Positions 1,174 through 20,070 of a stretch of 24,070 nt of DNA are shown here, in pieces. The position numbers were made by a program, and so were the translations under genes. The notes under the pieces are model-generated. The model worked only from the letters and a program-made list of their open reading frames with translations. It had not been told where the DNA came from and ran no database searches. Origin of the DNA: Clostridia bacterium (lineage in GTDB: Bacteria > Bacillota > Clostridia > Oscillospirales > CAG-272); NCBI GenBank assembly GCA_017420845.1, contig JAFQOC010000591.1:1-24070 (forward strand), read 5' to 3'. Numbering within the stretch: position 1 is the stretch's first letter; each line of letters starts with the position of its first letter.

Positions 1174-1308
1174 CCCCCAAAAATAGAAAATCCGTCAATG
1201 TTGTGATGATTGCGAAGCATCAAGAATCATGGCGGGATTAATTCAAGAGAAATATACTCACACAGAAATCAAAACTGTCCATATACGACTCAAGCAACCA
1301 AAACCTCC

Positions 1309-1563
1309 AAGCTCGAGTCCGGCTTCAAGCGCACCGTCAAGAAGGCGGGTAAGAAGACCAAGGACTTCGTGGGCAAGAAAACCGCCCAGGTCAAGGAATA
1401 CCGTAAGCAGTACAAGAGCGACGCGGATTATGCCTTCGACATGGGATTTAAGCGCGGGTGGGACGCGGCGTACGTCAGCCCCCACCGAGCGAGTGCCAGA
1501 TCGGCCGCCGCCCGAGGCTTCAAGAAGGGTATCAACAATCAGTACCGTTCCGATAAGCACTGA
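1309..1563 (+). pseudogene. Lys/Arg-rich gene fragment of unknown function, no supported start
   Basis: KLESGFKRTVKKAGKKTKDFVGKK...GFKKGINNQYRSDKH has strongly coding-like usage (most Lys are AAG, GC-rich third positions). The upstream part of this frame (1210-1308) is AT-rich and has no RBS. Confidence 0.45.
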
Positions 1564-1564
1564 G

Positions 1565-1804
1565 ATGAGATCCGCCATGACTTACATCATGAAGTACATC
1601 GAGAAGTCCGGGGAGAAGCTCGTTTATTCCCGTGGGCTGCCCCAGTATTTCAAATCCGACATTCTGGATGACGACGTGGTATGTCCCATCGGAATGGAGG
1701 ATCAGAAGTTCTTGCTTTTCGACAACTTATCCTGCTTCGAGGATGGGGTGTATATCGGGGAGGTCAGCCCCGAGATGATCAAGCAGATGAAGAAGGCAAA
1801 CTGA
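1565..1804 (+). pseudogene. 3' remnant of an HUH-superfamily rolling-circle replication initiator (Rep)
   Basis: MRSAMTYIMKYIEKSGEKLVYSRGLPQYF...QMKKAN. YIMKY (1583-1597) matches RCR motif III (YxxKY); motif I and the HUH motif II are absent. The first ~110 aa of the 1229-1804 ORF are an off-frame reading of the neighbouring fragment. Confidence 0.6.
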
Positions 1805-1977
1805 CGGCGGATCGTCGGGACAAAGCGGTTCCATGGAAGCAACATTAGCCAGTACGGATACTAAATCGGAAGGACAAAATAAAATGTTCGATATGTAACT
1901 ATGGATTTTCAAAAGGCGTATATAAGCTAGAACGCAAACAGACAACCTACCAAAAACGGTCCATCTATTGAATTGAT

Positions 1978-2008
1978 AAATGCAAAAAGAGCCTCACAAA
2001 TGCAAAAA
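1978..2008 (+). repeat. 11-bp direct repeat AAATGCAAAAA, 20-bp period, upstream of the SBP promoter
   Basis: Copies at 1978-1988 and 1998-2008. Confidence 0.8.
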
Positions 2009-2023
2009 TATTTACAATATATA

Positions 2024-2052
2024 TTGACATTTTGACCGTTATATGGTATAAT
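2024..2052 (+). promoter_or_regulatory. Consensus sigma-A promoter for the SBP gene
   Basis: TTGACA (2024-2029), 17 bp, TG-g-TATAAT (2044-2052). Confidence 0.85.
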
Positions 2053-2118
2053 TGGCACAAAGGTAAAGCCACTATTGTCGGCTTGAACTTTATTTACGAT
2101 CATAAGGAGGAAATCAAC

Positions 2119-3636
2119 ATGAGTCTTACTCTAAAGAGGATCATTTCATTGCTGTTATGTATCATAATTCTTTTGCCAACATTGGTTGCTTGTGGTCAGC
2201 AAACGGAGAACCCGTCTGACACTGACAACAAGCAAAGTGGTGATTCTGGGGACGCAAACAATACGGAAGTATCCGAAACGGAAACAACGGATCCCGTTCA
2301 AGACGCGCTGGATCGCCTGACCGCAGATGTGGACTGGGGTGGCAAAGACTTTGGCATGTTGTACGTCAATGACATTGGCGGTTATGTGGAGGAGGTCGAG
2401 GCTACTGCGGATTCCGGGGATTCCTCCTCCAGCGGCGTCATCAACGATGCGGTGTTTGAAAGAAACACACTGTTTGAGGAGTATTGCAAGCTGAACTTCG
2501 TTCTGATTCCCGTCAGCAGCGGCATGGTTAGTACCAGCCTCAAATCCGAGGTGCAGACCGGAACCGGAGATTTCCATTTGATTACGCAAACCATGACTGG
2601 ATCGGCAGACTCCGCCATTTCAGGTTACCTGCACAACTTCATGGATCTCGACATCGACTACGAGACCCCTTGGTGGGACGCGGGAACCCTGGATTTCGCC
2701 CTGTGCGGCCAAGTGTTCTTCATGGACGGCCCCTTCAATATCGTGGACGATGACGTGACCTTTGTCATGATGTTCAATAAGGAACTGCAGAAGCAGCATC
2801 AGGTTCCCAATCCCTACGAGACGGTCATGAATGGCGACTGGACCCTGGACAATTTCAATTCTATCATTAGTAACCTTTCCGTAGAAAATGGTGACGGAAA
2901 ATGGGACGAAAAAGACACATACGGCTTCTCTACACCCCACTCGATCGGCACTACCTTCTTCTACGGTGCCGGGCTTCAGTATGTGATCAATGACCGTACT
3001 ATGGATCAGCCTGAGTTGGCTCTGGATTCTTCGAAGATGGAAAAAGCACTGGACGTGCTTGCTAAGGCCCGTTCGATCGTCAAGGAGGGGAACTCCACTT
3101 ACGTCGCAGAGGGTACCGAATACGGCAAAGCGAAGGAGATCTTCTTGGATGGCCGAAGCCTCTTTTATGTAGAAGTAGCCAGTTATCTGCGCGCCCTGAA
3201 CAAGAACATGGAGACCGAATACGGTGTGATCCCAATCCCAAAATACAATAAGGAGCAGGAGAAATACCACACCTGGCGAGCCGGAAACGGATCAACTCTG
3301 TCGATTCCCACAACGGTAGCGTCTATGGATGTGGAAATGTTCGCAAAGGTACTGGAGACCTACTGCGTGCTTTCCCAGAAACTGGTGCGTCCCGCTTACT
3401 ATGATATCATGCTGACCACCCGAAACGTTCAGGATGTAGAGTCCTCCGAGATGCTGGATCTCATTTTTGAAAACCGCATTTACGACATGGGTGCCTACTT
3501 TGAGGTTCTTGGCTTTAATACCCTGTTCAACAAGAGCGTTATCGGTGAAGATACCTTCTCCTCCTCCTATGCGGCCGCCGTCAAGACCTACGAAAAGAAG
3601 ATGTTTGTTCTTCTCCAGAAAATCGAGAAGGATTAA
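2119..3636 (+). CDS. ABC-type extracellular solute-binding lipoprotein (probably carbohydrate), 505 aa
   Basis: RBS AAGGAGG before ATG 2119 (true start is internal to the 2032 ORF). Signal peptide with lipobox LVAC, acidic S/T/D/E linker, then SBP-like segments (AVFERN..FEE, PYETVMNGDWTLD, YGVIPIPKYN, DVESSEMLDLIF). Confidence 0.85.
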   Translation: MSLTLKRIISLLLCIIILLPTLVACGQQTENPSDTDNKQSGDSGDANNTEVSETETTDPVQDALDRLTADVDWGGKDFGMLYVNDIGGYVEEVEATADSGDSSSSGVINDAVFERNTLFEEYCKLNFVLIPVSSGMVSTSLKSEVQTGTGDFHLITQTMTGSADSAISGYLHNFMDLDIDYETPWWDAGTLDFALCGQVFFMDGPFNIVDDDVTFVMMFNKELQKQHQVPNPYETVMNGDWTLDNFNSIISNLSVENGDGKWDEKDTYGFSTPHSIGTTFFYGAGLQYVINDRTMDQPELALDSSKMEKALDVLAKARSIVKEGNSTYVAEGTEYGKAKEIFLDGRSLFYVEVASYLRALNKNMETEYGVIPIPKYNKEQEKYHTWRAGNGSTLSIPTTVASMDVEMFAKVLETYCVLSQKLVRPAYYDIMLTTRNVQDVESSEMLDLIFENRIYDMGAYFEVLGFNTLFNKSVIGEDTFSSSYAAAVKTYEKKMFVLLQKIEKD

Positions 3637-3788: not shown

Positions 3789-3887
3789 TCAATCATCCTC
3801 GCGCTTTTTACGGGAAAGCATGGCCGCTGCCGCTGCCGCTGCCGCTAAAGCGGTGCCACCCACGCCGAGGGAGGAACGGCAGCCCTT
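3789..3887 (-). other. C-terminal GCxS + hydrophobic helix + basic tail signal (copy 1)
   Basis: KGCRSSLGVGGTALAAAAAAAAMLSRKKREDD-stop. Confidence 0.75.
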
Positions 3888-6455
3888 GCCCGTGGCTTCG
3901 GTGGTAGGCTCGGTAACATCAGGGGACAGCGCATTGGTCTCCTCAACCTCTTCGGTGGCGGGCGGGGTCTCCTCGCCGCTGTCGGTATCGGTCTCGGGGA
4001 CAGTAGAGTTGGCCTCGGTGGAAATATAGCTGAACTTGAAGCGACCGCCGGGAGCAACGTCGCCCGAAATGTAGAAGTCCATAATATCGCCTGAGAACTT
4101 GGTGTAGTCACCCTCGTCATGAACGTTATCCGTCCAGGCGAAGTTCACGGTATAGTCGTTACCGGAAAGGCCCAGATCTGCCTTGGCGATCTTGACAGTC
4201 ATGTGCTTTCCGTCGACCTTGTACTCCACATCTGCCACCTTCTCGGTCTTGCTGTAATCGTCTGCGGCGGTAAACTTCTCCAGTACCAGGGTATTCTCGC
4301 CGGCAGGGGACTTGTTGACAACGTAGTCAAAGGTGTTCCAGCCCTGATTCTCCTGGTTGCAGTCAATGTACAGGGTCATCCACAGGTTATCGGTATAGGG
4401 CGTGATGTTCTCGTTACACTCTACGTGGAACCAGACATATTCATCATCACGAGCTATCTGCGCGCCAATAATGTCGTTTCGGCCCGAGGTCTCAGTGTAG
4501 TAGTGGTCAGCGTAACCCTGAGCGTCACGGTCGTCGGTGTTGCCGATGTAGGCGGCGTAATAGGGCTCTACGGCTGCCCACTGCTCGTTGCCTGCCAACA
4601 AGTCAATGGTTTTATTTGCACTGGGGGTAGGAATAGGACGCGCACCCTTATACTGACGGACGAAATTTACAAGCTGGTAGTAGTAATGATCCTTCAAGTC
4701 ACCCTTCGTGGGTTCGATATCACGGGAGAACTCGTCGTTGTAGGTATCCAGGAAGCCCTGATCCACATATGTCTGACCGGATCCCCAGTTGTACCAACGG
4801 CTGGCCTGCCACTCGTTCCAGCCTGTGACAAATACAACCTGAGGATCGATCTTCAAAGCGTTATTCCATTGCTCGGCGAAGTTGTAGCCCCACTTGGTGG
4901 CCTCGGTCCCTTCTACCTCGTAGCGATTCTCATAGGTGACGGTGTAGGAACGGCCGCATACGTTACTGCCGCTCATACAGGCCATTTGATCCACCACGTA
5001 GTTGTGATTTAGCGCGATGCCCACGGACATCTGTTCCACTACGCCCGCGCGGCGGGACTTTTCGTCCTTGTAGTAGTACGCCTGGGGAGCCTTGGCCAAC
5101 CAGCCCCAGTTGGAGTAGCGGGTCTTGTAGTCACTGATGAGGTACTTGGCCTGACCGCGGCGGAAGGTGAAGAATTCGCTTACTTCCTCGATCAGGGGAG
5201 AGGTAGCCGTCTGGAATGCGCTCTCGATGCCCATGATCATGGGCTTGCCGTCCCAGTAGAACCACAGGTTCTGATACTTGTTTTCACGGTAAATGTCGTA
5301 GTAGATATACGAGAGCTGCATCTTGTTGTACTTGGCATCATTAAAGGGCAGAAGGTAGGAGACCTTAGGAGTCCGCACACCGTCATTCATGGCCTCGGTC
5401 CAGGTATCGTATAGGGTATAGTAGGCCTCCCGATAGATGCGGTCGGTATTGGAGTTGTCGGTAAAGACCACGTCCACCCCGGCATTGGTCAGAAGCTCGG
5501 CTTGACGGCGGAGTACCCACTGATCCGTAGAGCGGTAGTACCCATAAATGGGCTCGTTCCAGAAGAAGGTATGATGGTTGATACCGTTCCATACCTCGTG
5601 ATTCTTGTCATTGGCAGCCTCGGGATACTTCATGGATACGTCCTGAAGCGGGAAGGGTGTGCGGTAGGCAAAGCTCTCGGTGTGCCAGGTCCAGAAGAAC
5701 ATGGCCAGGGTCCTATCCTCCCGGGGATCGCCCACATCGGCGTTGGTCAGGGACTTACGCCCCAGGCCGTCGGTAAAGACCCAGGTATCGGGCATGACCT
5801 CGTGGGTGTAGATGAGGCTGTCCTCAGGGATAACATACTCCTCGGGTACAGGGTGATCGCCTGTCGCGAGATTGGAGGACTCACAGGGGAGGAATGGCTC
5901 CACGGGGGTCTTGGTGAAGGTGACAGTGATCTCCCAGTCCACAGCCTCCTCCACGTCCAGACCCAGGTAGGCGTAGCCCTTTGAGACTCTGGAATCACGC
6001 AGTCTCACGCCCACGCATCCGATAGGATCCGACAGGGCGATGAGGTATTCGCCAGCGGGCTGCTCGTCAAAGGAGAAGTTGTTGGCAGAATCGCTATTGA
6101 TCTTAGACAGATGGGTGGTGGCGACGGGCGTGCCCTGAACGGACTCCGCAAAGGAGCCTGTCCACTTGTACAGGGAAACGTCAACCTCGGGCTTCACCGT
6201 GCTCCATGACCAGGTAAACAGCGTAATGGCGAGCTTGTTGAAGGGGGCACCGAAATTCATGCGGTAACCGTAAGTAGAATAGGTATCCAACCGCTTGTAA
6301 TCCCTTGTGGCATCGGGATTATACGCGCGGATGCGGGAGATCTTGTTTGAAGCAATATTGTCATCCTCGGCATTGACAGGCATAACGAACCGTGCGTTCA
6401 TCATGAGCATCAGAATAACAAGGGACATGATACTCCATTTTTTAAAGTGTTTCAT
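3789..6455 (-). CDS. Secreted, C-terminally anchored glycoside hydrolase-like protein (GH71/GH99-like barrel plus beta domains), 888 aa
   Basis: RBS AAAGGAG before ATG 6455; signal peptide ending PVNA. Motifs AMFFWTWH, FWNEPIYGYYRSTDQWVLRRQAELLTNAGVDVVFTD, VFVTGWNEW, SRDIEP, then ARDDEYVWFHV...WMTLYID (CBM9/DOMON-like), a P/T/E linker, and KGCRSS-hydrophobic-RKKR. Confidence 0.7.
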   Translation of the reverse strand: MKHFKKWSIMSLVILMLMMNARFVMPVNAEDDNIASNKISRIRAYNPDATRDYKRLDTYSTYGYRMNFGAPFNKLAITLFTWSWSTVKPEVDVSLYKWTGSFAESVQGTPVATTHLSKINSDSANNFSFDEQPAGEYLIALSDPIGCVGVRLRDSRVSKGYAYLGLDVEEAVDWEITVTFTKTPVEPFLPCESSNLATGDHPVPEEYVIPEDSLIYTHEVMPDTWVFTDGLGRKSLTNADVGDPREDRTLAMFFWTWHTESFAYRTPFPLQDVSMKYPEAANDKNHEVWNGINHHTFFWNEPIYGYYRSTDQWVLRRQAELLTNAGVDVVFTDNSNTDRIYREAYYTLYDTWTEAMNDGVRTPKVSYLLPFNDAKYNKMQLSYIYYDIYRENKYQNLWFYWDGKPMIMGIESAFQTATSPLIEEVSEFFTFRRGQAKYLISDYKTRYSNWGWLAKAPQAYYYKDEKSRRAGVVEQMSVGIALNHNYVVDQMACMSGSNVCGRSYTVTYENRYEVEGTEATKWGYNFAEQWNNALKIDPQVVFVTGWNEWQASRWYNWGSGQTYVDQGFLDTYNDEFSRDIEPTKGDLKDHYYYQLVNFVRQYKGARPIPTPSANKTIDLLAGNEQWAAVEPYYAAYIGNTDDRDAQGYADHYYTETSGRNDIIGAQIARDDEYVWFHVECNENITPYTDNLWMTLYIDCNQENQGWNTFDYVVNKSPAGENTLVLEKFTAADDYSKTEKVADVEYKVDGKHMTVKIAKADLGLSGNDYTVNFAWTDNVHDEGDYTKFSGDIMDFYISGDVAPGGRFKFSYISTEANSTVPETDTDSGEETPPATEEVEETNALSPDVTEPTTEATGKGCRSSLGVGGTALAAAAAAAAMLSRKKREDD

Positions 6456-6498
6456 ATAAGTCTCCTTTATGTAAGGATATTGGGGGGATCTGGTTATC

Positions 6499-6543
6499 GG
6501 GATTGCCTCGCCCGTGAGGATAAACCACAGGCGAGGCAACCCC
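6499..6543 (-). promoter_or_regulatory. Intra-operon stem-loop without U tract
   Basis: Minus-strand RNA GGGGUUGCCUCGCCUGUG-9 nt-CACGGGCGAGGCAAUCCC pairs over 18 bp with two G-U wobbles; begins 7 nt after the stop at 6551. Confidence 0.7.
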
Positions 6544-6550
6544 TTATTGA

Positions 6551-9529
6551 TCATTTGTCAGTCTTCATTTCGGGAATGGTAATGTCCGAGAACGCGCCAT
6601 ATTCCAGGGAAGAGAACTGGAACACCGCGGCGGTTGCGTTACCGCGGTTGGAGATACCGATCTGGGAAAGAGGGGTATCCGCGATCAGGGTGTTCTCAAC
6701 AATCTCCTGGGTTCCGTCGGCCAGGGTGATCTTGGCGGTCTCCGCGAAGGTGTTGCCGGGGATACAATTGGCGGCCTTGATATCGCCATAGGTCTTGCTT
6801 CCGGAAAGCTCGACGGTGGCCATGAGCTTGCCGTCCACCAAAACGTATACGCAGTAGCCGTCATCCGCCAGGGTCAGCTCGGTACCGGTGCAGAGGATGG
6901 TGTAGTACTTGTTGCCCACACGTCTGGAGACGGTGCTGTCGTAGTACTTCACGATCAGGTGCAGGTTGCCATCCATAATGGCCGCGTAGATACCCGCGCC
7001 GCCGGTATGACCCGCACCGTCACCCTCATAGAACTGACGGATTCTCGTATTCGAGGAAGCGGTTTCGTCAGAGATGACCTGCTGGTAGCCGCGAACGATC
7101 ATGTAGCTCTTGAGCTTGCCATCAGCAGCCAGGGTGGTCTGGGCATTGTTGAGCTTGAAGTAGTACAGACCGTCGTTGGTGTGGGCCATGGCGTTGATCA
7201 TGTGCATACCGTAGACCTTCTGACCGTTCAACTCCTCGATCATACAGCCACCCTGAGCCAGCTTCATTTCAAAGAAACCGGGCAGGTCGGTCTGATCGAA
7301 GGTAGTGCCCGCATCGTACTTGTTGACATCAGCGGTGAAGCTGACTGTGGTATTGGCAATGCCGTAGAGTTGATCCTTTTCGCCGCAGGCGGTGCAGGTG
7401 CCCTCTGCGAAGCTATGGCCAAGAGGAGCGCCCTCAACGATCTGGCAGAGGGAGCAGTACTTGGACTCGGTACAGGTGGCATCCACCCAATTGTGATTGC
7501 AGAAAGCGAACTCGGGAATCGTGATCGCGGAGAAGGGGCCGTACTCCACAGAGGAGAACAGGAACGTACCCGCAGCGGAGTTACCGCGGTTGGAAATACC
7601 GATCTGGGACAGAGGGGTATCTGCGATCAGGGTGTTCTCGATGGTCTCCTCGTTGCCGTTTGCCAGCTTGATGGTAGCGGAGGCGGCAAAGGTGTTGCGA
7701 GGACTGCAGTTCTCGGCCTTGATATCCGCGTAGGTGATGCTGCCAGAGAGAGCAACGGTAGCCATGAGCTTGTCGCCCACCAGGATATACACTGTGGAGC
7801 CGTCATCTGCCATGGTCAGCGCGGTGCCCTCGCAGGGGATGGTGTATAGCTTATTGCCGATGCGGCGCTCCGCCGAGACGTTGTAGTACTTCAGTATGAT
7901 GTGCAGGTTTCCGTCCATAACAGCCGCGTAAATACCCGCGCCGCCCGTATGGCCCGCTCCGTCATTTTCATAGAAGGACAGGATCCTTGTGTTCGAAGAC
8001 AGGGAGGCATCGGAGATGACCTGCTGGTAGCCGCGAACGATCATGTAGCTCTTGAGCTTGCCATCGGCTGCCAGAGCGGTCTGGGCATTGTCGAGCTTGA
8101 AGTAGTACAGACCGTCATTGGTGTGTACCATGGCGTTGATCAGGTGCATGCCGTAGACCTTCTGTCCGTTCAGCTCCTCAATTACGCAATTACCCTGAGC
8201 CAGCTTCATTTCGAAGAAATTGGGCAGGTCGGTCTGATCGAAGGTCGTGCCATTCTCGTAGCCATTGACGTTGGAGGTGAAGCTTCCCGTAGTGTCGGGG
8301 ATGACAATGGGCTCGGGCTCAGGCTCGGTCTCCTGGGGCTCAGTCTCCTGAGGCTCGGTCTCTTGGGGCTCGGTCTCAGGGGGCGTTGTCACGTCCATTT
8401 CGGGGATGGAGATCTCCGAGAAGGGGCCGTACTCCAGATAGGAGAACAGGAAGGAACCGGCTTGGGCGTTACCGCGGTTGGAGATACCGATCTGGGACAG
8501 GGGGGTATCTGCGATCAGGGTGTTCTCAATGGTCTCCTCGGTGCCATCTGCCAGCTTGATTGTGGCGGAAGCGGCGAAGGTGTTGCCGGGCGAGCAGTTC
8601 TCGGCCTTGATATCCTCATAGGTGATGCTGCCGGACAGGGCGATGGTGGCCAGGAGCTTGTCACCCACCAGAACGTACACGGTGGAGCCGTCATCTGCCA
8701 TGGTCAACTCAGTGCCCTCGCAGGGAACGGTGTAGAGCTTGTTGCCGATACGGCGGTTGGCGGTGTCATCGTAATACTTCAGAATGAGATGGAGATTGCC
8801 ATCCATGATGGCCGCGTAGATGCCCGCGCCGCCAGTATGGCCCGCACCGTCGTTCTCATAGAACTGCTTGATGGAGATCACCTGCGCGGCTCCCGTATCC
8901 TCGTTCTGGATCAACCAGTCGGAGTTGACTCGCTGGTACGCGCGAATCAGCATGTAGGACTTGAGTTTACCGTCAGCAGCCAGGGTGGTCTGGACGTTAT
9001 TGGTTTTGAAGTAGTAGAAGCCATCGTTGGTGTAGTACAAACCGTTGATCAGGCGCATGGCGTACACTTTCTGACCGTTGAACATCTCAACGCCGCAACT
9101 TCCCTGAGGCAGAGACATATCGAACAGGTTGAACATATCGGTGTAATCAATGGCGGTACCCACATCCTCGTTCTCCACCTCGGTAAAGAAGTAAATATCC
9201 GTGTTTTCGATGATCTCGGGCTCGGTCTCCTGAGGCTCGGTCTCCTGAGGCTCGGTCTCCTGAGGCTCGGTCTCCTGAGGCTTGGTCTCCTGAGGCTCGG
9301 TCTCCTGAGGCTTGGTTTCCTCAGGCTTGGTTTCCTGGGGCTTGGTCTCTTCGGGCTGGGTCTCCTCCGGCTTGGAATCCTCAGGCTGAGTCTCCTCAGG
9401 CTCGGTGGGGGTGCCGGTCCCGGTTTCATGGGTGTCTGTGGGCTGCTCCGCAGGGGGATCCTGGGTACAGGCTGTCACAGCGAGCAACAGCGCGAGCAGC
9501 AGGCAGGCGATCACGAGTAGCTTTTTCAT
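6551..9529 (-). CDS. Surface lipoprotein with three tandem ~260-aa domains of unknown family, 992 aa
   Basis: RBS GAAAGGA spacing favours ATG 9529. Lipobox VTAC, pentapeptide stalk, three homologous domains sharing DGAGHTGGAGIYAA and ENTLIADTPLSQIGISNRGN. Confidence 0.9.
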   Translation of the reverse strand: MKKLLVIACLLLALLLAVTACTQDPPAEQPTDTHETGTGTPTEPEETQPEDSKPEETQPEETKPQETKPEETKPQETEPQETKPQETEPQETEPQETEPQETEPEIIENTDIYFFTEVENEDVGTAIDYTDMFNLFDMSLPQGSCGVEMFNGQKVYAMRLINGLYYTNDGFYYFKTNNVQTTLAADGKLKSYMLIRAYQRVNSDWLIQNEDTGAAQVISIKQFYENDGAGHTGGAGIYAAIMDGNLHLILKYYDDTANRRIGNKLYTVPCEGTELTMADDGSTVYVLVGDKLLATIALSGSITYEDIKAENCSPGNTFAASATIKLADGTEETIENTLIADTPLSQIGISNRGNAQAGSFLFSYLEYGPFSEISIPEMDVTTPPETEPQETEPQETEPQETEPEPEPIVIPDTTGSFTSNVNGYENGTTFDQTDLPNFFEMKLAQGNCVIEELNGQKVYGMHLINAMVHTNDGLYYFKLDNAQTALAADGKLKSYMIVRGYQQVISDASLSSNTRILSFYENDGAGHTGGAGIYAAVMDGNLHIILKYYNVSAERRIGNKLYTIPCEGTALTMADDGSTVYILVGDKLMATVALSGSITYADIKAENCSPRNTFAASATIKLANGNEETIENTLIADTPLSQIGISNRGNSAAGTFLFSSVEYGPFSAITIPEFAFCNHNWVDATCTESKYCSLCQIVEGAPLGHSFAEGTCTACGEKDQLYGIANTTVSFTADVNKYDAGTTFDQTDLPGFFEMKLAQGGCMIEELNGQKVYGMHMINAMAHTNDGLYYFKLNNAQTTLAADGKLKSYMIVRGYQQVISDETASSNTRIRQFYEGDGAGHTGGAGIYAAIMDGNLHLIVKYYDSTVSRRVGNKYYTILCTGTELTLADDGYCVYVLVDGKLMATVELSGSKTYGDIKAANCIPGNTFAETAKITLADGTQEIVENTLIADTPLSQIGISNRGNATAAVFQFSSLEYGAFSDITIPEMKTDK
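6569..7351 (-). repeat. Domain repeat R3 (C-terminal copy)
   Basis: Anchor ACCGCGGTTGGA at 6641; homologous to the copies at 7583 and 8471. Confidence 0.9.
7511..8293 (-). repeat. Domain repeat R2 (middle copy)
   Basis: Anchor at 7583, 942 bp from the R3 anchor. Confidence 0.9.
8322..8381 (-). repeat. 15-bp coding tandem repeat x4 (P[PQ]ETE linker)
   Basis: Units such as GGCTCGGTCTCCTGG and GGCTCAGTCTCCTGA on the + strand. Confidence 0.9.
8399..9199 (-). repeat. Domain repeat R1 (N-terminal copy)
   Basis: Anchor at 8471, 888 bp from the R2 anchor; carries a 7-aa insertion relative to R2/R3. Confidence 0.9.
9219..9398 (-). repeat. 15-bp coding minisatellite x12 (P[EQ]E[TS][EKQ]-type stalk)
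   Basis: Consensus + strand unit GGCTCGGTCTCCTGA; 12 contiguous units with no spacers, in frame. Confidence 0.95.
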
Positions 9530-9568
9530 GGTCATATTCCTTTCTTTATGGTATGGTTTGGGAGAACG

Positions 9569-9652
9569 TCAGGACTTTTTCTTCAGAACGTAAGCCGCGG
9601 CAGCCAGTATGATGACGGAGCTGATTCCAAGGACGGAGCCGCAACCCTGTTT
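9569..9652 (-). other. C-terminal GCxS + hydrophobic helix + basic tail signal (copy 2)
   Basis: KQGCGSVLGISSVIILAAAAYVLKKKS-stop. Confidence 0.75.
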
Positions 9653-10813
9653 TTCGGGTGCGGTGGTGACCTCCTCGGGCTTTTCGGTACCTTCGGGCTC
9701 CGTGGGGGCTTCGGTCTCGGGGATCTCTTCAGTGGGGGTCTCGGTAGGGGCTTCCGTGGCGGGCTCGGTCACCTCCTCGGTGGGAGGCTCGGTCACGTCG
9801 AATTCATCTCCGTCGCCCTCAGTCTCATCCTCGCCCAGGATCTTGATGCCGAAGCAGTTCAGCTCCATCCCATCCTGAACGGGCATCTCAAGCTTGATAC
9901 CGTTTTCCGCGGGAGTCCAATTACAGATGGGCATACCAGTTTCGTCCACCATACCGTTCAGAGTACCCGCTCCCCAGTTATAGATACCGTTAGCGCCGGG
10001 CTTTCCTACAGAGCGATCCAGATAGTACAGGGAAATACCAATCTTCAGGGGCTTGTTGTCAACACCGCCCATGTAGATGGTGGGGTTCTCGCCCCAGGCG
10101 GCTTTGAAAACGTAATCATTGTACAACTGCTCCCAGGACATGGCGAACTCAGCGCTCCAGCCTGTCAGTGTGGCGCGAGCCGCTCCCTTGACACCGTCAC
10201 CGTTCTCTTCGGAGATCAAGCCGTCCATATCCGACTCCTGACGGTGGAATTCCAGCGGCAGACCGTCCTCAATGCAGCAGAAGGAATAGAAGATGTTTTT
10301 CTGGTTGGTCAGGGAATCGGGATCCTGCTCCACCTTCTCGCCCAGCTTGCCGCCAAAGTCAATAGCGATCTGGAAGGCATCGCCATTGTAGTAATTTTGG
10401 GTGGTGCCGTAGCAGAAATCAGGGTCGGTCACATAGAAGCCGACGTAGAAGTAATTTTCGTCTGCCACGAAATAGGCGGAAATGTTCCACCCCTCGGGCA
10501 TACCGGGATCAAGATAGCCGCCTTGGCCGTTGTGATCTTTCACCTTGTCACCAAAGCCGGTCCAGGAGATCATATTCTCAGGGCCGATTGTGGTCACAGA
10601 ATAACCCGCGTCAGCCCAGTCGGCCATATCACCGTCCGTCAGATCGAGCTTTTCAGAGGCATCGGGATCCCAAGTGATATCTACCTGTCCAACAGGATAA
10701 AACTCTTCGGCACTACCAATCGTATAAGCTGCGCCGTCCCATGCAACAACCGTTATTGCGGCCATGGACATGAGCATAGCTATTACGCAGATGATTGCAA
10801 TGATTTTTTTCAT
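9569..10813 (-). CDS. Secreted CBM9/DOMON-like carbohydrate-binding protein with C-terminal GCxS anchor, 414 aa
   Basis: RBS AGGAGG; signal peptide; LDLTDGDMADW, AYFVADENYFYVGFYVTD, NGDAFQIAID, GWSAEFAMSW (CBM9-like pattern); P/T/E linker; QGCGSVLG-hydrophobic-KKKS. Confidence 0.7.
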   Translation of the reverse strand: MKKIIAIICVIAMLMSMAAITVVAWDGAAYTIGSAEEFYPVGQVDITWDPDASEKLDLTDGDMADWADAGYSVTTIGPENMISWTGFGDKVKDHNGQGGYLDPGMPEGWNISAYFVADENYFYVGFYVTDPDFCYGTTQNYYNGDAFQIAIDFGGKLGEKVEQDPDSLTNQKNIFYSFCCIEDGLPLEFHRQESDMDGLISEENGDGVKGAARATLTGWSAEFAMSWEQLYNDYVFKAAWGENPTIYMGGVDNKPLKIGISLYYLDRSVGKPGANGIYNWGAGTLNGMVDETGMPICNWTPAENGIKLEMPVQDGMELNCFGIKILGEDETEGDGDEFDVTEPPTEEVTEPATEAPTETPTEEIPETEAPTEPEGTEKPEEVTTAPEKQGCGSVLGISSVIILAAAAYVLKKKS

Positions 10814-10990: not shown

Positions 10991-12094
10991 TTACTCTTTC
11001 CAAGAAGGAATCTCATCCTTGAAGAGCTGGTAGAACTCCGCATTTGTGACCAGGACTATGGAATCATCTTTGGCCGCAGCCTCGGTTATCATCTTAATAT
11101 ACTCTTCGAATTGATCCCAACTATTGGCGATATCCAATTCATATCCGTGTCCCCACATGAGGAACAGCATATCCTCCTTGCAATCCGTTGCAATAAATTT
11201 ACGAAGCAGGTACATCGCATCGCTATCGTTGATCGAGCACGTCGGATACCATGTCATAAAATACTCGGGGAGAGAGAATCTGTCCAAGCCCTTGTTCGTA
11301 TTGCGGTTGGTGCAGCTTCCGTAGCGGATATCGGTGGTCGCCAGAACGGTTTCAATGACTTGATCGTTCAGGTTCTTGTCACCCCCCGGCCAGGCTACGC
11401 CGACAGGCTTGTAGCCGAAGAGCTCCTGGATATTTTGGGCATCACCGAGGAGTTCTTGGGTGACCTCCTGTTCGGTAAGATTATTGAGCCCGCGATGATT
11501 GAGGGAATGACACTCCACATCAAATCCATCGTAGACTCCGGACAGGATCTGCTCTTTGGTGTAGCGCAGATGCGGCACATCCGGCCGTCCCGCCTGCTGT
11601 CCAACCTGAGGCCAATCGACACCGTACATACCTGTATTAATATAGAAAGTACAACAATAGGCATTGTATTTTTTCAGGATTTCAATAATACGTTCATCCT
11701 GCGTGATTCCATCGTCAAATCGTAATGTAAAATATTTTTTCGGAGTGCCGTCACGAACGATACCGTGACCTTCACAGCCCTCAGGAACTTGAGTGATCGC
11801 CTCGGTGGTAACTTCCTCGGTCGTAATTTCCTCAGTAGTGAATTCCTCGGTGGTGACTTCTTCTGTCATACTCTCCTCCTCTGTCGCGGTTTCGTCATCC
11901 GGGGGCATCGTTGGCTCTTCGGTCATCGGTTGATACTCGCCTGTTGCTTCCGCAGACTCTCCTGGGGATACGTCGGGAGTCGAGGAAACGCCGTCCTGAT
12001 TCCCGGGATCTGCATCGCAGGCACTCAAAAGGAGACATATTACGATGGAGAGCAGGCAACAAATGAAAAGAATACCTGTTTTTTTCTTCATCAT
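10991..12094 (-). CDS. Polysaccharide deacetylase (CE4/NodB-like) lipoprotein, 367 aa
   Basis: RBS AAAGGA; lipobox LSAC; E/T stalk; LRFDDG (motif 1), HSLNH (metal-binding motif 2), AWPGG, WGHGYE. Confidence 0.85.
   Translation of the reverse strand: MMKKKTGILFICCLLSIVICLLLSACDADPGNQDGVSSTPDVSPGESAEATGEYQPMTEEPTMPPDDETATEEESMTEEVTTEEFTTEEITTEEVTTEAITQVPEGCEGHGIVRDGTPKKYFTLRFDDGITQDERIIEILKKYNAYCCTFYINTGMYGVDWPQVGQQAGRPDVPHLRYTKEQILSGVYDGFDVECHSLNHRGLNNLTEQEVTQELLGDAQNIQELFGYKPVGVAWPGGDKNLNDQVIETVLATTDIRYGSCTNRNTNKGLDRFSLPEYFMTWYPTCSINDSDAMYLLRKFIATDCKEDMLFLMWGHGYELDIANSWDQFEEYIKMITEAAAKDDSIVLVTNAEFYQLFKDEIPSWKE
11801..11860 (-). repeat. 15-bp coding tandem repeat x4 (EE[VFI]TT stalk)
   Basis: CTCGGTGGTAACTTC, CTCGGTCGTAATTTC, CTCAGTAGTGAATTC, CTCGGTGGTGACTTC. 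Confidence 0.85.
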
Positions 12095-12373: not shown

Positions 12374-13198
12374 TTACGGAGAGCCCGCCTTTTTTTCGTC
12401 GGAGGGAGTCGTTCCGAAACGTTTCTTGAACTGACGGTAAAAGGAAGAGTAATCCGCAAATCCCGCTTCCTCGGCGGCAGTCACAGCGGGGGTTCCGCCT
12501 CGAATCAATCTACGGGCCATATTCAGCCGCTTCAAAATGACGTAATCCCAAATAGAGATCCCCATAGAATGACGGAAGGTCTGATTGATATAGGAGTAGC
12601 TGTACCCGAAATGCTCGGCCAGCATATCCATGTTTTCTATGCATTGAGGAGCTTCATTGATGTAATCGATGATGCGGCTCACTAAACTTTTTCCCTCTAC
12701 CGTAGGCGCGCTGTATCCGCCACCATCCTGTATCGCATTAGCAATCTCGTAAAGCAAGGTAGGAATATATAAGCGAATCCGAATCCTCCTTTCCTGCTCG
12801 GGCAACGGTTCATGAACCATATGGAGAAGCATGTTTTGAATCTTTTCCAACCGCGGCGAAGGCGCGATATAGTTACGATGCCCGAGGGGGCGATCAAAAA
12901 AGGAAGACAGCAAGAATTCTCGGTAGACTGGCGCAACAAATCCCGTTGTGAAGTGTAGTGCGATTCGCTCGTAGGGTCCGTCGGGACTGATATGAGGCGT
13001 ATGGGTTTCTCCTTCCCGCATGATCATGATGCATCCGGGAGACAACGGGTAGTCATAGCCTTCTACTGTATAGTATCCTGTCCCTCTCAGCAGACAAAAG
13101 ATTTCGTTTTGGGTATGCGTATGCAGGAAAAATTGACTTTCCTCTGGATGGATCGTTGTTTTATGATGCATATAGAGTTCTTCGTCAGTATAGATCAT
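12374..13198 (-). CDS. AraC/XylS-family transcriptional regulator, 274 aa
   Basis: Start MIYTDEE after AAGGA. N-terminal cupin (LHTHTQNEIFCLLRGTGYYTVEG..Y.LSPG); C-terminal HTHs (LAEHFGYSYSYINQTFR, AAEEAGFADYSSFYRQFKKRFGTTP). Confidence 0.93.
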   Translation of the reverse strand: MIYTDEELYMHHKTTIHPEESQFFLHTHTQNEIFCLLRGTGYYTVEGYDYPLSPGCIMIMREGETHTPHISPDGPYERIALHFTTGFVAPVYREFLLSSFFDRPLGHRNYIAPSPRLEKIQNMLLHMVHEPLPEQERRIRIRLYIPTLLYEIANAIQDGGGYSAPTVEGKSLVSRIIDYINEAPQCIENMDMLAEHFGYSYSYINQTFRHSMGISIWDYVILKRLNMARRLIRGGTPAVTAAEEAGFADYSSFYRQFKKRFGTTPSDEKKAGSP

Positions 13199-13229
13199 GG
13201 CATCCTTTTCCTTGTATATTTTTAAGCAT

Positions 13230-13258
13230 ATTATATCATGAAGCAATCGAAAATGCAA
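13230..13258 (-). promoter_or_regulatory. Sigma-A promoter for the AraC gene
   Basis: Minus strand TTGCAT (13258-13253), 17 bp, TG-a-TATAAT (13238-13230). Confidence 0.75.
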
Positions 13259-13478: not shown

Positions 13479-13606
13479 ATAGGCAAGAGTTGATCCTCTC
13501 AAGTCACTTAGGCCGTTTTTGCGTACTGCACCGATGTTGTACGCATACTTCTTATTCATTAAACAAAGCTGTACAATTTCACAAAATTTATAAAGGAGCT
13601 CACGCT

Positions 13607-14743
13607 ATGAATCAAGATTATCTTCACGTAACGAAGTATGAGGTCCTCGGGCAGCTGCCCGACCTCTTCACATTTCAGGACGGTACCCCCGTTGAAACAC
13701 CGAAAGACTGGAAAAGACGCCGTACCGAGTTGTACCGGACTGCCGTAGAGCTTCAGTACGGTACCCTGCCGCCCAAGCCCGAGTTTATGGAGGTCGAGAC
13801 TCTCTATATTGGTGCCAAGGTACGCTCCTACCGGATTCATACGGGTACGAAAGCGGCTCCCGTCAGCTTCCTGATGAAGCTGGTACTTCCTACCGGCGGG
13901 TATCATTATCCGGCCATCATTGACGGCGATATGTGCTTCCCCTATCACATGGACAGTGAGTACCTTGCCGCCGCCACCGATGAAGGCGTGGCCTGGGTAT
14001 TCTTTGACCGCACCGAGCTGGCCCACGATATACAGGGTGAGGGCCGCCGCAAGGGTCAGCTGTATGACACCTACCCCGATTACACCTTTGGCGCAATCGG
14101 TGCCTGGGCGTGGGGATACTCCTGCTGTGTGGATGCTCTGGAGATCATCTGTAAGGATCAGGAAAAGCCTCTTATCGATCTTTCCCTGATTGCCTTTTCG
14201 GGGCATTCTCGAGGCGGCAAGACTGCCGCTCTGGCCGGGGCCGTGGATACACGTGCGGCTATCGTGAATCCCAACGAGACCTGTGCCGGTGCTTGCGGCT
14301 GTTACCGCATTCACATTGAGGGCTACTGCGACGGCATCCCGCCTTTCCGTTCCGAGACCCTGGCCGATCTGTGGCGGAACTATTCCTTCTGGATGGGCCC
14401 CGGCATGGGAGACTACGCTAACCGTGAGGACGAGCTTCCGTTTGATGCTCACTTTCTGAAAGCCATGATAGCTCCCCGTGTTCTCTTTGTTTCGGAGGCG
14501 GCCGGAGATCTTTGGGCCAATCCCGTGGGCTCCTGGATGACCACCATGGCTGCCGGAAAAGCATTCGGGTTTTTGGGCGTGCCGGATAACCTATACTGGT
14601 ACTTCCGTGAAGGAACGCACTATCACACGGTGGGTGACGTGAAAATGCTTGTACATATTATCAAGCGGCAGAGAGATCCCTCCCTGCCTCTGCCCGAGGC
14701 CTTTTATAAAACGCCCTTCCCTCCCTTTGATCCCATCTATTGA
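13607..14743 (+). CDS. CE15 glucuronoyl esterase-family protein, cytoplasmic, 378 aa
   Basis: RBS AAAGGAG; LPDLFTFQDG, GAIGAWAWG, nucleophile elbow GHSRGGK (14201-14221), LPFDAHFLKAMIAPR, DLWANP, REGTH; no signal peptide. Confidence 0.85.
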   Translation: MNQDYLHVTKYEVLGQLPDLFTFQDGTPVETPKDWKRRRTELYRTAVELQYGTLPPKPEFMEVETLYIGAKVRSYRIHTGTKAAPVSFLMKLVLPTGGYHYPAIIDGDMCFPYHMDSEYLAAATDEGVAWVFFDRTELAHDIQGEGRRKGQLYDTYPDYTFGAIGAWAWGYSCCVDALEIICKDQEKPLIDLSLIAFSGHSRGGKTAALAGAVDTRAAIVNPNETCAGACGCYRIHIEGYCDGIPPFRSETLADLWRNYSFWMGPGMGDYANREDELPFDAHFLKAMIAPRVLFVSEAAGDLWANPVGSWMTTMAAGKAFGFLGVPDNLYWYFREGTHYHTVGDVKMLVHIIKRQRDPSLPLPEAFYKTPFPPFDPIY

Positions 14744-14773
14744 GAAAAACCAATGTTCTGTAAGGAGGCTCAT

Positions 14774-17335
14774 ATGAACGATACCAGATTGCTCGAGGTT
14801 CTTACCCGACAGGAGGATAATTATCTCCTCCCCTTTTATTGGCAGCACGGCACTCACCGCGACCGTATTCCCGCTCAAATACAGCGAATTTATGAGAGCG
14901 GATGTCGCGCGGTGTGTGTAGAATCCCGTCCTCACCCTGATTTTTGCGGTCCCAACTGGTGGGCCGATATGGATGTGATCCTGGATGAGTGCGCAAAACG
15001 AGATATGAAGGTCTGGATTCTGGATGATAAGAAATTCCCGACAGGCTACGCCAACGGTCTGATCGAAAAGAAGTATCCCTACCTACGCCAACGTGAGATC
15101 ATTGAGGAACACGTAGATGTTCTGGGTCCTGCTCCCGATACGGCTTTTCTGGTGAATCACACCGTCAAGGATGATGAGACCTTGGGTGTGTATGCGTTCC
15201 GTCGGGCAGACGAGGGAGAAGCCCTCGTGGGTCCTCCCATCGATCTGACGCCTACCCTCTCGGAGGGATACGTCTACTGGGACGTTCCCGAGGGATGCTA
15301 TCGCGTATTCTTCTATACCAAGTCCTTCCGCGGAAGCCGGGGCAACTATATTGACATGATCACCCCTGAATCCTGCCGTGTGCTTTTGGAGGGTGTATAT
15401 GAACCTCATTATGAGCATTATGCCAAATACTTCGGGAACACACTCGTGGGCTTCTTCTCAGACGAGCCTTCCTTTGGTAATGGCATGGCAACCCGTCACC
15501 CTACGGATCCCAGCGGTCATGAGCGCACGTTGGGCACGGTGGGCATCGCGCTTCCTTATTCCCCCAAGGTGATCGAATATATGTCCGCTGAAATGGGAGA
15601 GGATGCCGTCCCCTATCTGGGCGAGCTGTGGTTCAGTAGTGAGCACGCTCCCGTTACACGACTGGCCTATATGAATGCCATCACCCGCCTGTATCGGGAT
15701 AATTTCTGCTATTTGGTGGGCAACTGGTGCCGCGACCACGGTGTCATGTACATCGGTCATGTCATCGAGGACTATAACTGCCACGCACGAACCTGCGGCG
15801 GTACGGGACACTACTTCCGGGCGTTGGAAGGGCAGGATATGGCGGGAATTGACATTGTCTTGCATCAGGTTATGCCCGGTATGGCACATCATATCCATAA
15901 TTGCAGCCTGGGAACCGGCATCAGCGATCCGGCGTTTTATCATTACGTTCTGGGTCAACTGGGTGCTTCCCTCGCCCATCAGTATCCCCAAATGAAGGGG
16001 AGAGCGCTGTGCGAAGAATTCGGCGCATACGGTTGGGCAGAGAGCAGTACCATGATGAAGTGGATCACGGACTTCTTGTTGGTGCGGGGCATCAACCATT
16101 TCGTCCCCCATGCCTTTTCTCCCGATTATCCTGATCCCGATTGTCCTCCTCACTTTGGTGCAGAGGGGCACGACCCTCAGTTTGAGGGCTTTACAAAGCT
16201 CATGAACTACACCAATCAGGCAGCGCACCTGCTGTACGGTGGGGAGCATATCACTTCCTGCGCCATTCTGTACCACGCTGAAGGCGAGTGGATGAACAAC
16301 AAGGGCGAGTATATGTTCACCCAAGTCCCCGCTAAAGCGCTGTTGGACGGACATCTATGCTACGATATCATCTGTCAGGAAACCTTGGAGGCCGCCCGCG
16401 TCGAAAATGGTAAGCTGGTTGTCAACGGAGAGGTGTACGGTGCATTGGTCGTACCTTACGGACAGGTGCTGAACCACGCGCTGACCCCGGAGGTCAAGCG
16501 GCTCTTGGAAGCAGGTGTACCCGTGCTTCTTTGCGGTGGCAGACCTGAGGGCTTGGAGGGTGAGGTCATTTCCGCCTCGGAGCTCCCCGCCCGCATTCGG
16601 GAGCTGGGTCTGGCCGATATCACCGTGGAGGGAGATTGCCCCCTGCTCCGTCATTATCATGTGCGGAGAAACGGTGCGGATGTATTCATGTTCTTCAATG
16701 AGGACAGTATTCATACCGCTGATGCTACGGTCACGTTGCCCGTAAACGGAGATTTCGCTCGTCTGCGTCTTTTGGAGGATGGAGCCCATCGCGATGTCAC
16801 AGAGAACGGGCGAATCCGCGTAAAGCTATTGCCCGGGCAATCTGAGATCTTGGTTTTCGGTGACGAAGCCGTGGCAGAGCTACCGATTCTTCCCGCCATT
16901 TCGTATACTATACCGCTGGCTCCCCATTATACCATCGAGCTGGCAAGCTCCGAGGATCTGACCTCCTTCGAATTTTATAAGGAGACAGACAAGCTGGTCA
17001 ATATGACCGCATCTTCTGAAAAGCCTGCCTTCTCGGGTATTATGCGCTACTCCTTTGAGCTGTCATTGGATAGTATTCCTTCCCTTGCCGCTTTGGATCT
17101 GGGACGGGTTGGGCAGACGGCAAAGGTGTTCGTAAATGACAGCTTCGCGGGCTTACGCATTTCCGCTCCTTACGTGTTCCCCATCTCCCATCTGCTGCGA
17201 GAGGGGCAAAACGCCGTAAGAGTGGAGGTCGCCAATACCTTGGTCGGCAAAGAGCGGGATCGATTCTCACAGAACATGCCTATCCCGCCCTCAGGACTTC
17301 TCGGCCCTGTACAAATTCTTGTATATCAATCCTGA
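14774..17335 (+). CDS. GH106-like glycoside hydrolase (putative alpha-L-rhamnosidase) with C-terminal GH2-type sugar-binding domain, 853 aa
   Basis: RBS AAGGAGG; KVWILDDKKFPTG, FFSDEP, AGIDIV, CEEFGAYGW, RGINHFVPHAF, LDLGRVGQTAKVFVN...GQNAVRVEVANT; no signal peptide. Confidence 0.72.
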   Translation: MNDTRLLEVLTRQEDNYLLPFYWQHGTHRDRIPAQIQRIYESGCRAVCVESRPHPDFCGPNWWADMDVILDECAKRDMKVWILDDKKFPTGYANGLIEKKYPYLRQREIIEEHVDVLGPAPDTAFLVNHTVKDDETLGVYAFRRADEGEALVGPPIDLTPTLSEGYVYWDVPEGCYRVFFYTKSFRGSRGNYIDMITPESCRVLLEGVYEPHYEHYAKYFGNTLVGFFSDEPSFGNGMATRHPTDPSGHERTLGTVGIALPYSPKVIEYMSAEMGEDAVPYLGELWFSSEHAPVTRLAYMNAITRLYRDNFCYLVGNWCRDHGVMYIGHVIEDYNCHARTCGGTGHYFRALEGQDMAGIDIVLHQVMPGMAHHIHNCSLGTGISDPAFYHYVLGQLGASLAHQYPQMKGRALCEEFGAYGWAESSTMMKWITDFLLVRGINHFVPHAFSPDYPDPDCPPHFGAEGHDPQFEGFTKLMNYTNQAAHLLYGGEHITSCAILYHAEGEWMNNKGEYMFTQVPAKALLDGHLCYDIICQETLEAARVENGKLVVNGEVYGALVVPYGQVLNHALTPEVKRLLEAGVPVLLCGGRPEGLEGEVISASELPARIRELGLADITVEGDCPLLRHYHVRRNGADVFMFFNEDSIHTADATVTLPVNGDFARLRLLEDGAHRDVTENGRIRVKLLPGQSEILVFGDEAVAELPILPAISYTIPLAPHYTIELASSEDLTSFEFYKETDKLVNMTASSEKPAFSGIMRYSFELSLDSIPSLAALDLGRVGQTAKVFVNDSFAGLRISAPYVFPISHLLREGQNAVRVEVANTLVGKERDRFSQNMPIPPSGLLGPVQILVYQS

Positions 17336-17393
17336 ACTTTTTCCTACACATCGTTTGAGCATTGAGCGGTTTTCCCGAACAGGAGGTTGAATT

Positions 17394-20037: not shown

Positions 20038-20070
20038 CTGCCCTTGCAAGAAAGGACGGTATATAAGTTT

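Follow-up and report, generated by a model that had tools for sequence, protein, structure and literature searches.

Domains of the concanavalin A-like (ConA-like) lectin/glucanase superfamily (Pfam clan CL0004; SCOP b.29) provide the scaffold for several catalytic families, including GH16, GH7, PL7 and PL13/18/28, and this common fold is by itself no proof of function. Lectins and CBMs multiply in tandem for avidity, and Trp is common in CBM sites. In GH43 beta-xylosidases, the C-terminal beta-sandwich packs on the GH43 propeller and is not free-standing. Small modules termed ZBD1 and ZBD2 have been predicted in the IgA protease of Thomasclavelia ramosa (PMC12237041).

The stretch of DNA analysed here (24,070 nucleotides; the window) includes the gene for a surface lipoprotein, P0001, in which three tandem copies of a module follow a stalk. 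The module represents a lineage-restricted sequence family that is small and has no name, and the module's fold, conserved residues, domain partners and genetic context were examined.

Organisation of the repeat lipoprotein and its gene cluster

The coordinates of the features identified in P0001 and the neighbouring genes are listed in Table 1. The stop codon of the P0001 gene occupies positions 6551-6553, and the model of the gene caller is 992 aa in length, starting two codons in at 9529 (MKK). The N-terminus, MTMKKLLVIACLLLALLLAVTAC, includes the basic n-region, the hydrophobic h-region and the lipobox ([LVI][ASTVI][GAS]C) that define a bacterial lipoprotein (Lgt/LspA substrate), and Cys23, at which the lipobox ends, is the predicted lipidated N-terminus. 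A weak match of the N-terminus to the lipoprotein model TIGR03490 (NCBIfam; E 1.6e-4) was also found, and nearly all P0001 homologues share an MKKLL...(V/A)AC start. The stalk is ~85 residues long and rich in Pro, Thr, Glu and Gln. The lipoprotein on a stalk described in the original prediction can be recognised in the sequence from the VTAC lipobox (Cys23) and the E/P/T/Q stalk (24-107). At the C-terminus, 8 residues lie beyond copy 3 and a C-terminal anchor is absent.

Table 1. Features of P0001 and of the surrounding gene cluster in the window
Feature	Coordinates	Strand	Basis
Whole gene, 994-aa surface lipoprotein P0001	6551-9535	-	ORF
Signal peptide with lipobox V-T-A-C	9467..9535	-	Sequence
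Disordered acidic stalk, residues 24-107, (E/K)(T/P)(Q/E)PE-type repeats	9215..9466	-	Sequence
Copy 1 of the ConA-like module, residues 108-383, P0003	8387..9214	-	Genome search, alignment
Linker 1, residues 384-410, TEPQE-repeat spacer	8306..8386	-	Sequence
Copy 2, residues 411-679, P0002, copy used for the model	7499..8305	-	Alignment
Linker 2, residues 679-724, Cys/His-rich	7364..7501	-	Sequence
Copy 3, residues 725-994, P0004	6554..7363	-	Genome search, alignment
First cluster gene, lipoprotein with polysaccharide deacetylase (CE4) domain	10991..12094	-	PF01522 E 1.1e-16; synteny
Upstream gene, 414 aa, C-terminal TM anchor, weak CBM9 match	9569..10813	-	PF06452 E 0.01; synteny
Downstream gene P0109, signal peptide, GH99-like (beta/alpha)8 barrel, C-terminal TM anchor	3789..6554	-	

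When the genome was searched with copy 2, copy 3 was recovered at E 1.8e-132 and copy 1 at E 1.8e-122, placing the repeat far beyond chance. The three tandem copies of ~260 aa, first placed at 6569-9199, were found at 6554-9214; they are 269-276 aa long and share 67-75% identity at the protein level and 73-77% at the DNA level (269 aligned positions). Each of six motif blocks listed beforehand as invariant occurs three times, at residues 153/456/770, 169/472/786, 185/488/802, 229/525/839, 261/557/871 and 337/633/947. The expected three conserved Cys per copy also align (C40, C158 and C200 in copy-2 numbering), with a fourth Cys present in copy 3, and the variation was indeed found to be concentrated in a few segments, namely copy-2 residues 100-110 and 142-146. 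Copy 1 has a 7-residue insertion in a variable loop.

Copy 2 was found to be a mosaic, in which the 5' ~300 nt most resemble copy 3 (nt identity up to 93%) and the 3' ~400 nt most resemble copy 1 (83-90%). The dS between copies is about 0.8, indicating that the duplications are old, and the dN/dS of 0.22-0.32 indicates purifying selection on all three copies, suggesting that all have been kept functional.

Linker 2 contains eight candidate ligands (C679, H681, C688, C694, C697, H707, C714 and C717), which would form two Cys3His sites. No match to this linker was found in Pfam, or among PDB sequences at E<=10. A Cys/His unit of the same type also lies between the copies in the congener protein P0249, with 1-3 units per junction. 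Such putative zinc-binding Cys3His-type mini-modules between modules, present in one linker of P0001 and in P0249, may be related to the predicted ZBD1/ZBD2 of the T. ramosa protease, but the main stalk of P0001 is a disordered acidic repeat and not a Cys/His rod.

A search of the minus strand revealed no terminator-like site within the four-gene cluster that encodes P0001. The PF06452 match of the 414-aa protein falls below the gathering cut-off, and the true start of P0109 is probably Met34 at position 6455. The gene order CE4 / 414-aa protein / repeat lipoprotein / GH99-like is conserved in the congener G003, where the flanking genes are 71-78% identical to those found here; identity drops to only 49% for the repeat protein, which also differs in copy number. 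The opposite strand carries a uronate/pectin catabolic operon at a distance of ~4 kb. The GH99-like family to which P0109 belongs includes at least 2840 proteins. Five congeners each have 11-38 matches in their genomes, and fusions of this family with the ConA-like module occur in other proteins.

Fold and sequence family of the module

The AlphaFold2 (AF2) model of copy 2 (pLDDT 94.5, pTM 0.93) is all-beta, with 20 strands and no helix of four or more residues, consistent with the beta-rich domain that had been described. The two curved antiparallel sheets of ~200-250 residues that characterise the ConA-like superfamily are present, and on this model the module is a ConA-like lectin/glucanase jelly roll, i.e. 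a two-sheet beta sandwich. With dozens of members of the superfamily, 160-190 of the 269 module residues superpose at 3.2-4.4 Å (Z 11-13), the matches spanning model residues 3-260. The best Foldseek matches of the model were to legume lectins, PL7 and GH16 (probability 0.98-1.0).

In the VIA comparison, the highest scores (Z 12.9-13.2, rmsd 3.3-3.5 Å over 170-177 residues) were obtained with the C-terminal sandwich domains of GH43 enzymes and with the receptor-binding domain of phage TM4, followed at Z 11-12.4 by the galactocerebrosidase lectin domain, the Vibrio cholerae sialidase CBM40, GH16, the ERGIC-53/Emp46 lectins, PL7 and CBM66. The GH43 beta-xylosidase domains (5jow, 5z5d and 7k1r; Z 13.2, 13.1 and 12.9; rmsd 3.3-3.4 Å over 170-172 residues) score within 1 Z unit of unrelated families with the ConA-like fold and, whereas they belong to a larger assembly with the propeller, the module in P0001 is free-standing, in tandem and on a stalk. 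The lectin-type modules (CBM40, 2w68/1w0o; CBM66, 4b1m; ERGIC-53/Emp46; galactocerebrosidase, 3zr5) share the fold at Z 10.9-12.4 but have no sequence relationship to the module, and the similarity to CBM40 and CBM66 (Z 10.9-12) is at the generic fold level. The GH16 lichenases/laminarinases and PL7 alginate lyases likewise share the fold at Z 11-12.7. Sequence identity to the ConA-like structural matches is 4-16%, and ~80 residues, including the N-terminal ~30 and the 99-122 loop, are specific to the family and set it apart from the clan.

The alternative of a novel enzyme fold, raised in the original prediction, was rejected, as both Foldseek and VIA identify the AF2 model as a ConA-like jelly roll. 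As this fold occurs here without a catalogued sequence family, the module represents a new sequence family of a familiar fold, and not a new fold. With the whole P0001 protein, searches of Pfam-A and NCBIfam returned only sub-threshold noise for the repeat, and when 30 members of the module family were compared with Pfam at E<=1 no Pfam family recurred, the one isolated match being to Laminin_G_3 (E 0.031). There was no significant match to profiles of the CL0004 clan (Laminin_G_3, DUF1080, Lectin_legB, GH16, Alginate_lyase2 etc.), no Pfam CBM model matched the module in P0001 or the 30 members, and the long homologues P0249, P0017 and P0006 had no Pfam match. Searches of the PDB with the copy-2 sequence and with a profile from the family alignment each gave 0 matches at E<=10, and recognition in the ESM Atlas was below threshold, with unnamed clusters only. 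A literature search on Gram-positive PUL lipoproteins and CBMs yielded no mention of the family. The earlier statement that the repeat could be assigned to no family therefore holds for Pfam, NCBIfam and PDB sequence and profile searches over its length.

The module family comprises 104 clusters among 1.84 billion representatives, and outside the surface lipoproteins of uncultured Clostridia it is almost absent. Of 24 genomes from the same genus, 15 had the family and 16 other families in the order yielded no member; the members have diverged to <30% identity. Two distant members (L010 and L011) have housekeeping genes as neighbours and no sugar-utilisation genes around them, and hence there is no operon clue that holds for the whole family.

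Conserved residues and a possible catalytic role

In an alignment of 102 non-redundant family members, R91 (100%), D167 (100%), R240 (99%), D115 (94%), K139 (92%) and G124 (100%), which faces K139 in a hairpin, were the most conserved, with Y51 and Y67 ranking after R91, D167 and R240, alongside D115 and K139. The three copies of P0001 all retain the family-invariant residues, and the differences between copies lie in two loops. The motif blocks described above as invariant are present in all three copies, but several are conserved among these copies only and not across the family; one of these is YYFK, which falls within the first third of the module sequence. A functional role for the His of DGAGHTGG, which had been noted as conserved, and for the three Cys is not supported, as across the family the His varies and the Cys are found in 9-25% of members. 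No invariant Glu or His was found in the 102 members.

The near-invariant charged residues could be those of an active site. The modules would then constitute a new ConA-fold GH or PL family, displayed in triplicate on the surface, with R91, D115, K139, D167 and R240 as the active site; the carboxylates would be D115/D167, or else R91/K139/R240/Y126 would make up a constellation of the lyase type. GH16 and PL7 structures match the model as strongly as lectins do, the uronate/pectin operon is nearby, and in most proteins of the family no catalytic domain is recognised elsewhere, which leaves the module as a candidate for this role. However, the GH16 catalytic motif E-[ILV]-D-[IVAF]-[VILMF]0-1-E (ExDxxE), which in GH16 lies on an inner strand, and each of the PL7 blocks R[ST]E[LV]R, Q[IV]H and YFKAGxYxQ were found by regular expression in 0 of the 102 family domains, and the Pfam clan members gave no signal. 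Three tandem copies at 67-75% identity would also be unusual among catalytic domains, and the module is appended in the manner of a CBM to real enzyme modules. A catalytic role is therefore considered improbable.

That the modules are structural spacers or a scaffold lacking a ligand, only extending or organising the surface layer, is very improbable. In favour of this view, the GH43 C-terminal domains with the highest structural scores do not act as binding modules on their own. However, near-invariant polar residues of surface type persist in a family so diverged, all three copies are under purifying selection, and low-complexity stalks and Cys/His mini-modules already serve as spacers in these proteins.

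Domain partners and proposed function

In P0055 the module is preceded by a GH99-like barrel and by PA14, in G021:C132 it follows a GH99-like barrel within a single uninterrupted ORF, and in P0128 it lies before a SASA carbohydrate esterase. F5/8 type C domains co-occur with the module in 10 of 56 homologues and Laminin_G_3 in 3 of 56, and in a paralogue encoded in the same genome the module follows F5/8C. The number of tandem copies is 3 in P0001 and at least 4 in the congener G003. In being both appended to enzymes and multiplied in tandem, the module resembles CBMs.

The fold as modelled and these domain partners fit a multivalent glycan-binding protein, and it is somewhat better than an even chance that P0001 is a non-catalytic lipoprotein of this kind, encoded in a conserved cluster of four genes for surface proteins (CE4, CBM9-like, P0001, GH99-like). 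We infer carbohydrate binding, multivalency and cooperation with the neighbouring proteins for P0001. The lipid anchor would hold the protein at the cell surface of the uncultured gut Clostridia bacterium, with the acidic stalk holding out the three ConA-like modules. Each module would bind a carbohydrate ligand, the three copies giving avidity, and P0001 may act as a glycan-capture protein or adhesin that works with the neighbouring CE4 deacetylase and GH99-like endo-glycanase. The ligand may be an alpha-linked polymer of the mannan or glucan type, as the GH99-like partner hints. Counting against this reading, the family has no conserved Trp, the charged set (R91, D167, R240, D115 and K139) also resembles a catalytic site, and the distant members are located among housekeeping genes, outside sugar-utilisation loci.

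The ligand could instead be non-dietary, with P0001 an adhesin or recognition protein for host, fungal or bacterial surfaces or proteins that evolves fast under phage or immune pressure, its neighbours being incidental. Phage receptor-binding domains are among the best structural matches (TM4 gp23, Z 12.9; Douge baseplate protein, Z 11.8), viral tail proteins were matched in BFVD, the repeat protein of G003 has diverged further than its flanking genes, sequence has been exchanged between copies, and the distant members stand alone. However, the recurrent partners (F5/8C, PA14, LamG, SASA and GH99-like) are glycan-related, and CE4 and GH99-like genes belong to the conserved four-gene cluster. 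This alternative is judged unlikely, though it deserves some weight, and as cell-surface adhesion is most likely glycan-mediated in any case, it overlaps with the multivalent glycan-binding role.

A new ConA-fold sequence family on a Gram-positive surface protein is by itself unsurprising to specialists. The analysis nevertheless provides a fold and a testable role for a set of surface lipoproteins from uncultured Clostridia of the gut and rumen that are entirely unannotated, every one having been deposited as 'hypothetical protein'. Gene fusion and conserved gene order tie the module family to a very large dark GH99-like family, which has been massively expanded in this genus. If the module does bind glycans, it would qualify as a new CBM family and would offer a handle on the substrate of the GH99-like enzyme family.

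Copy structure of the repeat lipoprotein

The repeat lipoprotein (P0001) begins with a basic/hydrophobic signal that ends in a V-T-A-C lipobox (Cys23), and the public gene call starts two residues downstream, at MKK. The tandem triplication described in the original prediction was confirmed, as the three module copies share 67-75% identity in protein and 73-77% in DNA sequence, and a genome search with copy 2 returned the other two at E values of 1.8e-132 and 1.8e-122. Every motif block quoted in that prediction was found exactly three times in the protein, and the three Cys residues noted per copy were aligned across all three copies.

Features of the contig referred to in the text (module copies are numbered from the N-terminus)
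Feature	Residues	Window position	Strand	Remarks
Serine recombinase (Resolvase and Recombinase domains) and two ORFs		2-874; 1229-3636	(-); (+)	ORFs without Pfam match
GH99-like protein (downstream gene)	921 aa	3789-6554	(-)	No Pfam match
Repeat lipoprotein ORF	994 aa	6551-9535	(-)	
Acidic Pro/Thr/Glu/Gln repeat	After signal, to 107			
Module copies 1, 2, 3	108-383, 411-679, 725-994	6554-9214	(-)	Copy 2 at 7499-8305
Copy 1-copy 2 junction				TEPQE-type spacer
Cys/His-rich linker, copies 2-3	679-724	7364-7501	(-)	45-residue segment
Upstream genes				414-aa protein (weak CBM9 match), CE4 deacetylase lipoprotein, then AraC regulator farther out
AraC-family regulator		12374-13258	(-)	
Uronate/pectin catabolic operon		13490-23334	(+)	

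Between copies, dS was ~0.8, indicating that the duplications are old, and dN/dS was 0.22-0.32, indicating that purifying selection acts on every copy. Copy 2 was found to be a mosaic in which the first ~300 nt are nearest to copy 3 (up to 93% at the nucleotide level) and the last ~400 nt are nearest to copy 1 (83-90%), a pattern suggestive of gene conversion or of unequal exchange between copies.

The linker between copies 2 and 3 has the pattern CxHxWxxATCTxxKxCxxC...LGH...TCxxCG, and its eight potential metal ligands could supply two Cys3His sites. This unit recurs one to three times between modules in a congener protein, P0249 (L032:3348-6860 (+)), and at the start of P0104, a homologue of 5042 aa. 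It had no Pfam match, and no match by sequence was found among solved chains in the PDB; comparison with ZBD1 and ZBD2, the modules predicted to bind zinc in the T. ramosa IgA protease (PMC12237041), is a lead only.

Fold and conservation of the module

The original prediction could not assign the repeated domain to any family, and this was borne out. Pfam-A and NCBIfam searches with the repeat lipoprotein gave only noise, phmmer and family-profile searches of the PDB were both empty, no common Pfam family was found at E<=1 among 30 module-family members, and the ESM Atlas provided no usable lead for the module.

The module was modelled with AlphaFold2 from a 30-sequence alignment that combined the three copies with short homologues and with two paralogous copies encoded in the same genome, giving an all-beta structure with a mean pLDDT of 94.5 and pTM of 0.93. 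Foldseek matched this model to legume lectins, PL7/PL28 lyases and GH16 glucanases (E 6e-5 to 1e-3). VIA, run both as an exhaustive search and as a re-ranking of the Foldseek list, gave Z scores of 11-13.2 across 160-190 residues, with 4-14% identity to the listed structures. Among these, Z was 13.2 for a GH43 C-terminal sandwich (5jow), 12.9 for the receptor-binding domain of phage TM4 (9n6a), 12.4 for the lectin domain of galactocerebrosidase and 12.0 for CBM40 of Vibrio sialidase. GH16 lichenases, ERGIC-53/Emp46 lectins, PL7 lyases, DUF1080 and CBM66 were also matched, and in a viral structure library the same fold was shown by phage tail proteins and receptor-binding proteins. As the model matches lectins, GH16, PL7, GH43 sandwiches and CBM40, the module is predicted to adopt a jelly roll of the concanavalin A-like lectin/glucanase type, with no one concanavalin A-like family standing out. 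These matches exclude a novel fold, and with it the novel enzyme fold offered earlier as one option.

Conservation was scored over 102 non-redundant domains in copy-2 numbering. R91, G124 and D167 were conserved in 100%, R240 in 99%, G188 in 97%, Y51 and Y67 in 95%, D115 in 94%, K139 in 92% (the remainder being Arg), and Y126 and N224 in 81%. The strand register indicates that G124, Y126 and K139 should face one side of the 123-130/133-141 hairpin. The conserved His (DGAGHTGG) and the three Cys of the original prediction proved to be subfamily features, Cys being present in 9-25% of members. The near-invariant Arg/Asp/Lys set could point to a catalytic module, a role that seems distinctly unlikely; no invariant Glu, His or Trp was found across the 102 domains, and none carried the GH16 or PL7 signature motifs. 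The family-invariant residues are all kept in copies 1, 2 and 3, and it is very unlikely that the modules serve purely as spacers.

Distribution and domain partners of the family

When 1.84 billion representative proteins were screened exhaustively with HMMER, only 104 clusters passed E<=1e-3 and 45 passed E<=1e-30; nearly all start with a lipoprotein signal followed by a Pro/Thr/Glu stalk. A local HMM gave 147 domain matches in 124 proteins, 123 of the domains being near full length. The usual protein carries a single copy, typically at around residue 400 of 800-1700 aa, and some carry two; within this set, the window's protein and its orthologue P0005 were the only ones with three copies. 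A further protein, P0111, may be truncated after two copies, as its sequence stops exactly at a copy boundary.

Members are labelled 'hypothetical protein [Clostridia bacterium]' in named sources, and related loci come from MAGs of gut and faecal origin that carry the label Eubacteriales or Clostridia. The domain was found in 15 of 24 sampled genomes of the same genus (1-6 matches each) and in none of 16 sampled from other families of the order. The window's own MAG (G000; 71% complete) has two further paralogous loci. One (L006; G000:C114) encodes an F5/8 type C domain followed by two module copies, and the other (L004/L005; G000:C647) a lipoprotein that combines a PT-repeat stalk with two beta-rich, unassigned regions and one module copy, cut by the contig end.

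The module is attached both to enzymes and to known glycan-binding modules. Among 56 full-length homologues, most of which had no Pfam domain, F5/8 type C was present in 10, Laminin_G_3 in three, and SASA esterase and PA14 in single proteins each. In P0128 the module precedes a SASA carbohydrate esterase. In P0055 the module follows PA14, which is itself preceded by a homologue of the downstream gene in the window (E 7e-50). In congener G021, one uninterrupted ORF joins the GH99-like enzyme-like domain to the module.

Gene neighbourhood and putative role

The downstream gene, with its true start probably at Met34 (position 6455), encodes a predicted (beta/alpha)8 barrel (residues 245-650, pLDDT 76) nearest to GH99 endo-alpha-mannanases (Foldseek E 8e-9; VIA Z 18.5 to 6fwo, rmsd 3.9 A over 274 residues), followed by GH71 (Z ~15) and generic TIM-barrel hydrolases (Z <=12). 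At least 2840 proteins belong to its family, all annotated hypothetical; the genomes of five congeners each gave 11-38 matches, and the blocks W-N-E and S-R-D-x-E are among the family-invariant residues (alignment A4). Both the 921-aa and the 414-aa neighbour end in G-C-x-S-x-L-G followed by a hydrophobic helix and then a basic tail (3789-3900 and 9569-9650 (-)), whereas the repeat and CE4 proteins are anchored by N-terminal lipoboxes. No terminator-like sites were found on the minus strand inside the four-gene cluster (CE4, 414-aa, repeat lipoprotein and GH99-like genes), which is bordered at its downstream end by the serine recombinase and the two ORFs. The uronate/pectin operon encodes CE15 glucuronoyl esterase-like, GH106-like and UxaB-like (mannitol-dehydrogenase-family oxidoreductase) proteins, UxaA (altronate dehydratase), GH28, UxaC (glucuronate isomerase) and KDPG aldolase. 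Distant members of the module family have housekeeping genes as neighbours.

Congener G003 keeps the four-gene order, with 71% identity for CE4, 78% for the 414-aa protein and 77% for the GH99-like protein; its repeat lipoprotein reaches only 49% identity and carries four or more copies, with 1-3 Cys/His units per junction. The two loci (L032, G003:C157:20000-26859; L031, G003:C72:1-3100) are on contigs that probably join, as the break falls within the repeats. An adhesin with a non-dietary role, which appears unlikely, would fit both this faster divergence of the repeat lipoprotein than of its flanking genes and the structural resemblance of the module to phage receptor-binding proteins.

The sequence family of the module is uncatalogued; its fold is very well known, and the manner of its display is familiar. 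Given the fold, the appendage-like behaviour and the tandem multiplication with loop-localised variation, it is somewhat probable that the repeat lipoprotein is a lipid-anchored, stalk-borne, putative multivalent lectin- or CBM-like protein for glycan capture or adhesion, in which the module copies would bind a target glycan that the neighbouring CE4 and GH99-like enzymes would also handle.
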